IMG/VR virus record: IMGVR_UViG_3300032267_001484
Source of the DNA: a virus
Length of the DNA stretch: 64,000 nt
Strand: one strand, 5' to 3'
A program made the position numbers and the translations under genes. Below, one piece after another: positions 34,628-37,160 of the stretch (positions within the stretch are counted from its first letter, which is position 1; each line of letters starts with the position of its first letter). The notes below the pieces were generated by a model, which was given only the letters and a program-made list of their open reading frames with translations, did not search any database and was not told the origin of the DNA.

Positions 34628-35017
34628 TGGTGGAGATAGTGGGATTCGAACCCACGTCTTCGAAAGCGACAATAATACTAACGTCTCACATGCTTAGATC
34701 TAAATTGCTTTTGATCAGTAAGGGCTGACCTTTATGGTCGTTTCCACCACTTGATTTTATGACTATCAAGAAAACTAATTCACAGTCCTTATTTAATGAG
34801 TCGATCGTGAATACTCAGTGGTTTTCTGTTCCTAGGTAACTCACACCCGGTGCGGATTAAGCTGCAAGAGCGTAATCGGCGCCTACGAAAGACATCAAGT
34901 CTTCGAAGGTCATAGTTGACATTTCGTCATTTATTGTTTAGTATCTTCTAAGGCGGTATACTCAAACGCCTGCATGTAGTATCATCTCAACATCCGAATC
35001 GATACCATGTTATCCCC
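34628..35017 (-). ncRNA. ssrA: tmRNA
   Basis: Acceptor stem GGGGATA/TATCTCC with G3-U wobble, ACCA 3' end and T-arm GTGGG-TTCGAAT-CCCAC. Tag frame after ATAAAT reads DEMSTMTFEDLMSFVGADYALAA* (34928-34857). Confidence 0.95.
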
Positions 35018-35647: not shown

Positions 35648-35663
35648 AGAACAGTAACTAATG

Positions 35664-35748
35664 TACCTGGAGCCGGACTCGAACCGGCACGGTCACTTCT
35701 GACCAACAGATTTTAAGTCTGTCGAGGCTGCCATTACTCCACCCAGGC
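35664..35748 (-). tRNA. tRNA-Leu(UAA)
   Basis: GCCTGGG/TCCAGGT acceptor, ACAGA-CTTAAAA-TCTGT anticodon arm, long variable arm, GCCGG-TTCGAGT-CCGGC T-arm; CCA not fully encoded. Confidence 0.93.
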
Positions 35749-36288: not shown

Positions 36289-36442
36289 TATACAAATTTT
36301 ATTTGCAACTCTATTCTCCAGTGGAGTTGCTTTACACCGCTAACTGACGATTTAGAGGGGTAGTGTGCATTGTTAAGAGGCATCCCTGAGTTTTCGTTCC
36401 ACTGGCCTAGTGGCTGATAATTTAGGTGGCTCACTGTGTTCA

Positions 36443-36602
36443 GGCTGTCAAGGGAGGATTCGAACCTCCAAACTGCGATTCGATATTTGACAAAATAAGC
36501 CGGCTTTGTGGTCAACCCATATCTAAATACCTATTTCGTTTTTCAGCGCCCACGAGACGAGTGGGTGTGTTTGCCATGGATATACCCTTTCACCACTTGA
36601 CA
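36443..36602 (-). ncRNA. oversized tRNA-like RNA (Asp-like) with about 75-nt structured insertion
   Basis: TGTCAAG/CTTGACA acceptor followed by G-CC; GGAGG-TTCGAAT-CCTCC T-arm; CCCAC-TCGTCTC-GTGGG arm; enlarged D region. Confidence 0.65.
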
Positions 36603-36603
36603 A

Positions 36604-36834
36604 TTAAAAGATTTTACTTTGTTGTCTGCGCTTAGCTTCTTCAGCTTCCTTTACTAAACGAATCCAAGTCAAACTAGCATCTACAACAGCAAGTACAGGA
36701 GCAAATGGAAGAATAAATAATGTTTCAAGACCTGGTGTAGGACCAATTGGGCTATTACCAAAATGGTGTTTGTAACTAACACTCATTCTCCAAATGCAAT
36801 ATACTATGCTTACTATGTAAATGTACCAAATCAT
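36604..36834 (-). CDS. small membrane protein
   Basis: Two hydrophobic segments; TATATTTA promoter box upstream. Confidence 0.6.
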   Translation of the reverse strand: MIWYIYIVSIVYCIWRMSVSYKHHFGNSPIGPTPGLETLFILPFAPVLAVVDASLTWIRLVKEAEEAKRRQQSKIF

Positions 36835-37109: not shown

Positions 37110-37130
37110 TTTATTTCTATTTTATTTACT

Positions 37131-37156
37131 AGCCGGCTGAAAAGCCGGCTTTTTTT
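37131..37156 (+). terminator. intrinsic terminator
   Basis: AGCCGGCT-GAAA-AGCCGGCT followed by a T-run. Confidence 0.85.
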
Positions 37157-37160
37157 ATTA

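Follow-up and report, generated by a model that had tools for sequence, protein, structure and literature searches.

A 160-base element on the minus strand of IMG/VR virus record IMGVR_UViG_3300032267_001484 (positions 36443-36602 of the 64,000-nucleotide stretch analyzed here, hereafter the window) has the outline of a transfer RNA (tRNA) with an irregular anticodon loop and a giant variable arm. It raises the question of whether such a molecule is a decoding tRNA, a decoy, a mimic of some other RNA, an interrupted tRNA gene, or something else. Our analysis confirms the element as a genuine RNA gene under strong conservation. Judging by sequence comparison, it represents the phage-borne version of an RNA family that resides in environmental Bacteroidota and has so far not been catalogued. 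The body of this RNA is that of a class II, tRNA-Leu-like tRNA with the variable arm grown into a structured domain of 60-120 nucleotides (nt).

Homologues were collected from phages and bacteria and examined for covariation, as the first-pass annotation of the window had suggested. Exact-motif scans of IMG/VR, parsed by script, gave 94 candidates and 88 distinct true members, and a search across prokaryotes, with each species represented by one genome, gave at least 120 bacterial loci holding 121 copies; blastn searches of INPHARED (GenBank phages) with type A and type B queries returned no homologue. Two alignments were made, one of 48 close copies (A1, folded with RNAalifold) and one of 66 diverse phage and bacterial copies (A2). 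The window copy, which is the first row of both, carries all invariant columns. In A1, RNAalifold predicted seven helices, namely the acceptor, D, anticodon-type, and T stems and three helices within the arm (GCUG/CAGC, CGA/UCG, and a 9-base pair (bp) helix with one bulge), with compensatory changes in 21 of the 38 predicted pairs. In A2, 96.5% of cells were paired, compared to 77.0% after column shuffling and 45-57% with slid partners; changes on both sides occurred in 28 of 36 pairs, and double-change cells numbered 485 against 124 expected. The 88 distinct phage and at least 121 bacterial copies share one architecture, and compensatory changes were present in every helix. The element is therefore neither a unique, decayed pseudo-tRNA, given its many homologues and strong covariation, nor a member of an existing Rfam family, given that Rfam 15 is blank; the first-pass annotation had named either outcome as grounds against its reading.

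Standard annotation tools pass over this family. The element had no Rfam 15 match at the gathering threshold or at E ≤ 10, RF00005 and RF00023 included, and bacterial copies were likewise unmatched. ARAGORN made no call on the element, calling nearby only a transfer-messenger RNA (tmRNA) and a tRNA-Leu(UAA). Neither Rfam 15 nor the literature searched yielded a description of the family. Being absent from Rfam 15 and skipped by tRNA finders, it is a blank in current genome annotation. A survey of IMG/VR in 2023 reported a phage candidate RNA, DNAVirus_1850, that was seen 27 times and once overlapped a tRNA-Asp call (PMC10690425); this candidate may be part of the giant-armed family. The minimum free energy fold of the window sequence alone is no better than those of shuffles (z = -0.69); the structure is revealed by comparative data only.

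Re-reading of the minus strand, on which all features of the RNA lie (RNA position n is window coordinate 36603-n), showed a full tRNA frame at 36445-36602 with two expansions, a hairpin in the D loop and a giant variable arm. The cloverleaf elements, i.e., the 7-bp acceptor, 5-bp T stem, T loop, D stem, and G18-G19, are present and every helix is supported by covariation. The 5′ strand of the acceptor stem, UGUCAAG (RNA 1-7; 36596-36602), pairs perfectly with CUUGACA (RNA 151-157); this stem has compensatory changes in 7/7 pairs and 99.8% of cells paired, and its U1, G2, and U3 are near-invariant across the family. U8-G9 and the D arm follow (36567-36595), with the D stem GUG (RNA 10-12)/CAC (RNA 34-36) and then A14-A15. 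The D region had been described as enlarged, and the cause is a 10-nt hairpin, GGGUAUAUCC (RNA 16-25, within 36567-36595), inserted between A14-A15 and G28-G29, the equivalents of G18-G19. This inserted hairpin is found in phage copies only and is usually a perfect palindrome; in the window copy it is palindromic if G.U pairs are allowed. The D arm of bacterial copies is normal and tRNA-Leu-like with a covarying stem, and in the wider family the D stem covaries as G10-C25, A10-U25, or U10-A25 and as U11-A24 or C11-G24. The anticodon-like arm (RNA 38-54; 36549-36565) comprises the stem CCCAC/GUGGG, of which pair 4 covaries (A-U, U-A, C-G, or G-C), and the loop UCGUCUC (36554-36560). As first described, this loop reads C33, G34 U35 C36, U37, and C38.

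The variable loop is replaced by the giant arm, which spans 76 nt (RNA 56-131; 36472-36547). Its covarying helices are GCUG/CAGU, CGA/UCG, and GGUAUUU(A)GA/UCAAAUAUC; these arm helices (4-6 of the seven) are 89-100% paired, with compensatory changes in 13 of 16 pairs. A conserved internal loop, AAUA opposite GAA, lies between the arm helices, and beyond them are one hairpin and an apical hairpin. Inside the arm is an invariant 9-nt hairpin loop, GGUUGACCA (36509-36517), closed by U84-A96 and G85-C95. This loop contains UUGAC and does not vary in either alignment, while its closing stem covaries (UG/CA, UGG/CCA, AG/CU, UAG/CUA, CUGG/CCAG). At the arm tip, a palindrome scan detected a 10-nt perfect palindrome, AAGCCGGCUU (36497-36506). 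The first-pass annotation was thus right that some 75 extra nt fold on themselves, in what proves to be a conserved 76-nt arm, but the pairings it had drawn (GATAT/ATATC and TTGAC/GTCAA) are not the conserved ones. U132-U133 precede the T arm, and U133 is the invariant position-48 equivalent, able to pair with A15. The T arm GGAGG-UUCGAAU-CCUCC (helix 7; RNA 134-150; 36453-36469) is 99.7% paired and covaries in 3/5 pairs. The last segment (36444-36452) holds the acceptor 3′ strand CUUGACA, the discriminator G73 (36445), and an encoded C74 (36444); CCA is only partly encoded, with the tail G-C-C-U. Our reading agrees with the earlier one on the perfect 7-bp acceptor, the discriminator G followed by CC, and the canonical T arm.

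Across the family, the defining set consists of the ends UGU...ACA-G-C, the tRNA-Leu-like D arm, the loop NN-G-U-C-U-C, helices Va-Vc, and the GGUUGACCA loop, all of which the window copy has. U35-C36 is invariant and G34, U37, and C38 are nearly always present, as are G73 (in ~97% of copies) and U1-A72; many type B copies have A10 or U10 in place of G10. Among the 88 phage copies, the anticodon-type loop is UCGUCUC in 54, CUGUCUC in 17, and UUGUCUC in eight. All 121 bacterial copies among the matches listed are 139-234 nt long with 5′ UGU and 3′ ACA-G-C, and their loops are UUGUCUC (65), CUGUCUC (37), and UCGUCUC (18). The arm, at 60-120 nt, has three helices, internal loops, and two, at most three, hairpins. 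Short bacterial paralogues of 112-126 nt keep the body and the internal loop GAUAAA opposite CUAA, and lack the GGUUGACCA loop.

These observations bear on whether the arm is a removable intervening sequence in a tRNA gene, as the first-pass annotation had suggested as one option, or whether the whole is a decaying pseudo-tRNA. A length about twice that of a tRNA and the absence of an ARAGORN or Rfam call would fit either case. Against both, motifs within the insert are invariant and its helices covary in two hundred copies from phages and bacteria; there is no sign of an intron, with no group I or bulge-helix-bulge features and no Rfam intron match. The insert also sits at the variable-loop position, where we know of no splicing system. 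This explanation seems very improbable to us. The likeness to Y RNA that had also been proposed is not supported. In bacterial Y RNA (YrlA), the ends form the Ro-binding stem, the tRNA-like module is internal, and the gene lies beside rsr. The 5′ and 3′ ends of the giant-armed RNA instead form the acceptor stem, there is no Rfam match, and no rsr-like gene occurs among its conserved neighbors in phage and bacterial loci.

Some further structural ideas were considered. Pairing of the 5′ UGGUG with ACCAC of the arm loop fails because the 5′ strand varies (UGAUG, UGGCG, UGUUG, UGUCG) while ACCAC is invariant; this 5′ strand covaries with the 3′ strand of the D stem. A cis interaction between the arm-loop GAC and the GUC anticodon would amount to 3 bp with both sides invariant, and short paralogues without the loop keep the anticodon-type loop. 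The internal loop does not fit the sequence of a kink-turn or sarcin-ricin motif and, by eye, is nearer the UAA/GAN type (GAUAAA opposite CUAA).

We next consider where the family resides. Nearly all of the bacterial loci are from Bacteroidota, including Chitinophaga, Pedobacter, Spirosoma, Flectobacillus, Arcicella, Aquirufa, Saprospiraceae, and Cytophagaceae, and the matches include cultured strains and complete chromosomes. A covariance model (R2) found one copy per genome at 120-149 bits, compared to at most 56 bits for class II tRNAs of the same genomes; family members overall scored 86-149 bits. In an even sample of Bacteroidota, 15/151 genomes were R2-positive. A divergent Lrp/AsnC-type regulator is located ~168 nt upstream in 75/115 bacterial loci among the matches listed. 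That the gene is chromosomal, usually single-copy, and adjacent to its own regulator indicates that phages borrowed a host RNA.

This host residence weakens the idea of a phage-invented decoy; a synthetase or anticodon-nuclease decoy was among the options given in the first-pass annotation. A decoy or sponge for an enzyme that acts on G-U-N anticodons (a colicin E5-type anticodon nuclease, tRNA-guanine transglycosylase, or aspartyl-tRNA synthetase (AspRS)) would account for an invariant G34-U35-C36 set between non-canonical positions 33 and 37. It would also suit the carriage of the RNA among phage tRNAs, sets of which are thought to counter tRNA-directed defenses. A mostly single-copy gene that sits on host chromosomes next to a regulator cannot be called a phage invention, however, and the full tRNA body, the acceptor top, and the invariant arm loop would be left unexplained. 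Moreover, no nuclease or transglycosylase gene is linked among the conserved neighbors in phage and bacterial loci. We therefore consider a decoy function improbable.

The 3′ end of the RNA resembles those of true tRNAs around it. The G-C tail is present in 88 of the 94 candidate phage copies, with G73-C74 followed by A, U, or C, and among true tRNAs in the same phage loci C74 is encoded in 246/248 and CCA in only nine. Host tRNA-Asp genes show a 3′ tail similar to that of the phage tRNAs. Encoding of C74 without CCA points to an unusual, uniform 3′-end rule in this host-phage group. Since the giant-armed RNA has the same tail as true tRNAs, it should undergo the same maturation, which would involve RNase P, 3′ trimming, and CCA addition.

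The element also retains features relevant to charging. In Escherichia coli, the AspRS identity set comprises G34, U35, C36, C38, G73, G2-C71, and G10. All of these are in the window copy, extending the aspartate identity elements named by the first-pass annotation, and their retention suggests that the giant-armed RNA is probably aminoacylated. Its anticodon loop is non-canonical, as had been noted: U37 is found in nearly all of the ~200 copies, and C33 is kept in this phage lineage. Decoding tRNAs have a purine at position 37. Routine decoding by the giant-armed RNA is unlikely in view of its conserved U37 (with C33 as well in the present lineage), its U1-A72 pair, its very large arm, and a coexisting normal tRNA-Asp.

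The reading that we favor, and to which we give about an even chance, is that this is a tRNA-derived RNA that matures as a tRNA and is probably charged, is not a routine decoder, and bears a putative partner-binding arm. Such an RNA would be a carrier, sensor, or regulator that functions next to the ribosome or away from it, and the invariant GGUUGACCA loop would serve as a handle, i.e., a docking site, for the putative partner. By carrying it together with tRNAs and tmRNA, phages may keep or control a host function during infection. Some findings weigh against this reading. In most bacterial copies the loop is 7 nt long and contains U33, such that weak or specialized decoding of GAC/GAU is possible. 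The combination of a long arm and G73 equally suits seryl-tRNA synthetase (SerRS), as has been proposed for allo-tRNAs (PMC5389517), and so the amino acid is uncertain. Some short paralogues have the loops CUUUCUC, CGGUCUC, and UUGUCCC, from which it follows that aspartate identity is not universal. In addition, no conserved protein partner adjoins the gene in both phages and bacteria.

The first of these points leads to a rival, in which the RNA genuinely decodes GAC/GAU on the ribosome as a tRNA-Asp isoacceptor and gains a regulatory or recruiting function from its enlarged arm. It has in its favor the full cloverleaf, the 7/5 acceptor/T branch, the canonical T loop and elbow nucleotides, U33 in 102/121 bacterial copies among the matches listed, the retained aspartate identity set, and the 3′ tail of true tRNAs. 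Set against this are U37, which occurs almost without exception, and C33 as well in this phage lineage. A canonical tRNA-Asp(GUC) with G1-C72, A37, and the loop CUGUCAC was present in all five bacterial carriers tested, and a normal tRNA-Asp also occurs in ten phage loci; the acceptor top of the giant-armed RNA is U1-A72 as opposed to the G1-C72 of host tRNA-Asp. Furthermore, an arm of 60-120 nt takes the molecule well past the size of an elongator tRNA, and we know of no elongator with an arm near that length. We judge a decoding role of this kind to be unlikely.

The second point raises the possibility that the RNA is charged with serine by SerRS, which reads the long arm and G73 and ignores the anticodon, and that it acts as a missense or regulatory tRNA in the manner of allo-tRNAs with GUC anticodons. 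In addition to the arm and G73, the body finds its closest match among class II tRNAs; the best scores of an earlier covariance model (R1) were 31.9 bits for T4 tRNA-Leu and 28.4 bits for T4 tRNA-Ser. The same argument has been made for allo-tRNAs, among which GUC anticodons predominate (PMC5389517). Yet the acceptor/T branch is 7/5 and not 8/4 or 9/3, the D arm is tRNA-Leu-like and not tRNA-Sec-like, and the arm is 3-5 times that of any SerRS substrate. Strict conservation of U35-C36-U37-C38 would also be unneeded for a synthetase that ignores the anticodon. Serine charging therefore seems highly improbable to us.

The near-invariant U1-A72 and the regulator next to the bacterial gene suggested another candidate, a carrier for asparagine synthesis: AspRS would charge the RNA through GUC and G73, GatCAB would recognize it through U1-A72, and asparagine would be made off the ribosome under AsnC-type control. 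Consistent with this, GatB was present in 15/15 RNA-positive sampled genomes, AsnA was not found in the five carriers tested, and an Lrp/AsnC-family neighbor is common. The phyletic patterns led us to reject the idea, however, leaving it only the slightest probability. GatB occurs in 126/151 sampled Bacteroidota irrespective of the RNA, asparaginyl-tRNA synthetase (AsnRS) was present in 5/5 carriers, and AsnB scored above the curated cut-off in 12/15 RNA-positive genomes compared to 83/151 overall, which is no anticorrelation. Nor would such a carrier bring phages a clear benefit.

The phage copies have a further property that the host copies largely lack. At the arm apex, a spacer-free perfect palindrome of at least 8 nt was found in 49 of 67 distinct phage sequences, compared to 7.8% of shuffles, and the D-loop insert contained a perfect palindrome of at least 8 nt in 23 of 38 distinct sequences, compared to about 5% of shuffles. 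Such palindromes at the bacterial arm tip were near the null, occurring in 19/107 among the matches listed (a figure that is partly a search-window artefact) against 7.8% of shuffles. Each phage palindrome site holds more than 20 different sequences, for example AGCCGGCU, GCGCGC, GCUUGCAAGC, GCGUACGC, and GACCUAGGUC. A self-complementary loop is not explained by an ordinary hairpin, and a protein-binding site would not vary in this way; copy-to-copy pairing is the simplest reading, and the phage RNAs probably do pair with themselves through these loop tips. We tentatively propose, as a possibility that is itself doubtful, that they self-assemble tip to tip into dimers or chains, joined by kissing loops or extended duplexes at two exposed sites, the D-loop insert at the tRNA elbow and the arm apex. 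This would give lineage-specific self-recognition, a feature missing from the host versions. The median predicted energy of a dimer relative to two monomers was -12.8 kcal/mol for phage and -10.5 kcal/mol for bacterial copies, which is in the right direction but too small an effect to serve as evidence. Imperfect palindromes were too few for a test of strand asymmetry between G.U and A.C. If true, the proposal would mean a tRNA-scaffolded RNA assembly with its own palindrome in each phage lineage.

In phages, the gene lies among tRNA and tmRNA genes. The window is a low-GC phage contig that encodes a baseplate wedge protein, a prohead protease, GroEL, and thymidylate synthase. ARAGORN calls a tmRNA (34628-35017) and a tRNA-Leu(UAA) (35663-35748), both on the minus strand like the element. 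More generally, phage copies are embedded in tRNA arrays and share their strand, in many cases with a neighboring tRNA only 1-8 nt away, and the loci include a tmRNA (28/88), a tRNA-Leu(UAA) (34/88), or a normal tRNA-Asp (10/88). This layout shows the element as a predicted part of the transcripts of phage tRNA/tmRNA arrays. Its copying by many large phages beside tRNAs and tmRNA suggests a role in translation or amino-acid physiology during infection.

The most conserved phage neighbor is a small membrane protein gene of 75-76 amino acids with two predicted membrane helices, which in the window lies at 36604-36834 on the minus strand with its stop codon 1 nt upstream of the RNA. In 46/88 phage loci a homologue on the same strand ends a median of 5 nt upstream; the protein matched no Pfam or PHROG family. 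In bacterial loci, it was found only on one contig of a metagenome-assembled genome (locus L316), where the RNA copy is of the phage type. The protein is thus phage-only and was rejected as a partner common to phages and bacteria.

Several other features of the window and the related loci were recorded. Directly 3′ of the RNA, on the minus strand, some 150 nt without a convincing gene (36289-36441) are conserved in loci L176, L059, and L171. This stretch contains three hairpins and a few compensatory changes (e.g., GCAACUC/GAGUUGC vs GUAACUC/GAGUUAC). Unmatched in Rfam, it is a candidate for a second small RNA. At its start is the box CUGAACACAGUG, which follows the RNA in 10/88 phage loci. 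A GUUACCGUUCUUUGACAUAUAAGGAG box is found 5-30 nt 3′ of the RNA and before the start codon of the next gene in 10/88 phage loci (e.g., L001 12350-12385), and a GUUCUUUGACAU box likewise lies 3′ of tRNA-Leu in the window. A strong GC hairpin at 37119-37157, GCCGGCUGAAAAGCCGGC, has A and U runs on either side and several spurious weak Rfam matches; it reads as a two-way terminator. Some bacteria have tandem copies, or else a short paralogue that lies 73-110 nt from the main copy, as at L420 2198-2534 (Pedobacter zeae), L421, L302, and L338; L421 and L302 have two copies each and L338 has three. The L421 pair has the loop CUUUCUC, a glutamate-type UUC with U37 still present. Approximately 180 nt upstream of the giant-armed copy in L252 is a tRNA of normal size that ARAGORN calls tRNA-Asp, with the loop CUGUCUA (U37, A38) and no arm. 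Finally, L278 and a near-identical locus hold a different tRNA-like gene, outside the family, that starts AGUUAGAUAGCUUAAUGGUAAAGC, has a ~70-nt insert before a normal T arm, and lies beside another tRNA.

Few tRNA-shaped RNAs have jobs other than decoding (tmRNA, Y RNA-like RNAs, and viral tRNA-like ends), and each has opened new biology. The present family occurs in about a tenth of the sampled Bacteroidota genomes, with a loop that breaks the purine-37 rule and an arm as large as a tRNA itself. Its cultured carriers (Chitinophaga, Pedobacter, Spirosoma) make the question of its function directly testable.

Among known RNAs, the giant-armed RNA is closest in architecture to bacterial class II tRNAs (Leu, Ser, Tyr; RF00005). 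Shared features include the 7/5 cloverleaf, U8, A14, A15-U48, G18-G19, and the T loop UUCGAAU. The D arm is nearly that of tRNA-Leu (UGGUGAAA...GGCAGACAC), and the extra arm departs from the variable-loop position as in class II tRNAs. In contrast to the single stem-loop of about 10-21 nt in those tRNAs, the arm here extends over 60-120 nt and contains internal loops and as many as three hairpins. The family further differs from them in its Asp-type loop with U37 (and here C33), G73, and U1-A72, and in escaping detection by RF00005 and ARAGORN. With the canonical tRNA-Asp(GUC) of hosts and phages it shares G34 U35 C36, C38, G73, G2-C71, G10, and a G-C tail followed by A or U. That tRNA, found in the same genomes as the giant-armed RNA, is instead a class I molecule of 75-77 nt with G1-C72, U33, A37, and the loop CUGUCAC.

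Allo-tRNAs, for which a regulatory or missense role has been proposed (Mukai et al., 2017; PMC5389517), combine an acceptor/T branch of 8/4 or 9/3 with a D arm like that of tRNA-Sec and a variable arm of ordinary class II length, and are found in Clostridia, Proteobacteria, and Acidobacteria. Unlike these, the giant-armed family has covarying 7/5 stems, a tRNA-Leu-like body, and a giant arm, and is found in Bacteroidota and their phages.

T4 rnaC and rnaD (species 1 and 2 RNAs) are alike in kind, being stable RNAs of 120-140 nt within a phage tRNA cluster, the function of which has gone unexplained for 50 years (PMC3014915). In T4 rnaC, the 3′ 95 nt (L299 2907-3001) have a tRNA frame, with the 7-bp acceptor CGGAACG/CGUUUCG and a canonical T arm. 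We rejected homology, since rnaC scored 12.5 bits with R1 and 14.5 bits with R2, in the T-arm half only and below ordinary T4 tRNAs (with R2, below T4 tRNA-Arg); the resemblance of GGAUAUGGUUGAG to rnaC is due to chance. The T4 RNAs also lack both the GUC loop and the GGUUGACCA loop, and no host counterpart of them is known. In kind, they are the nearest analogue of the giant-armed RNA. A last comparison is with tmRNA, which has no anticodon arm, a G3.U70 alanine identity, and a tag reading frame with pseudoknots, whereas the giant-armed RNA keeps the anticodon arm, has U3-A70, and contains no reading frame. Nevertheless, tmRNA is likewise a host tRNA-like RNA that is associated with the translation apparatus outside ordinary decoding and that has been copied into the same phage clusters.

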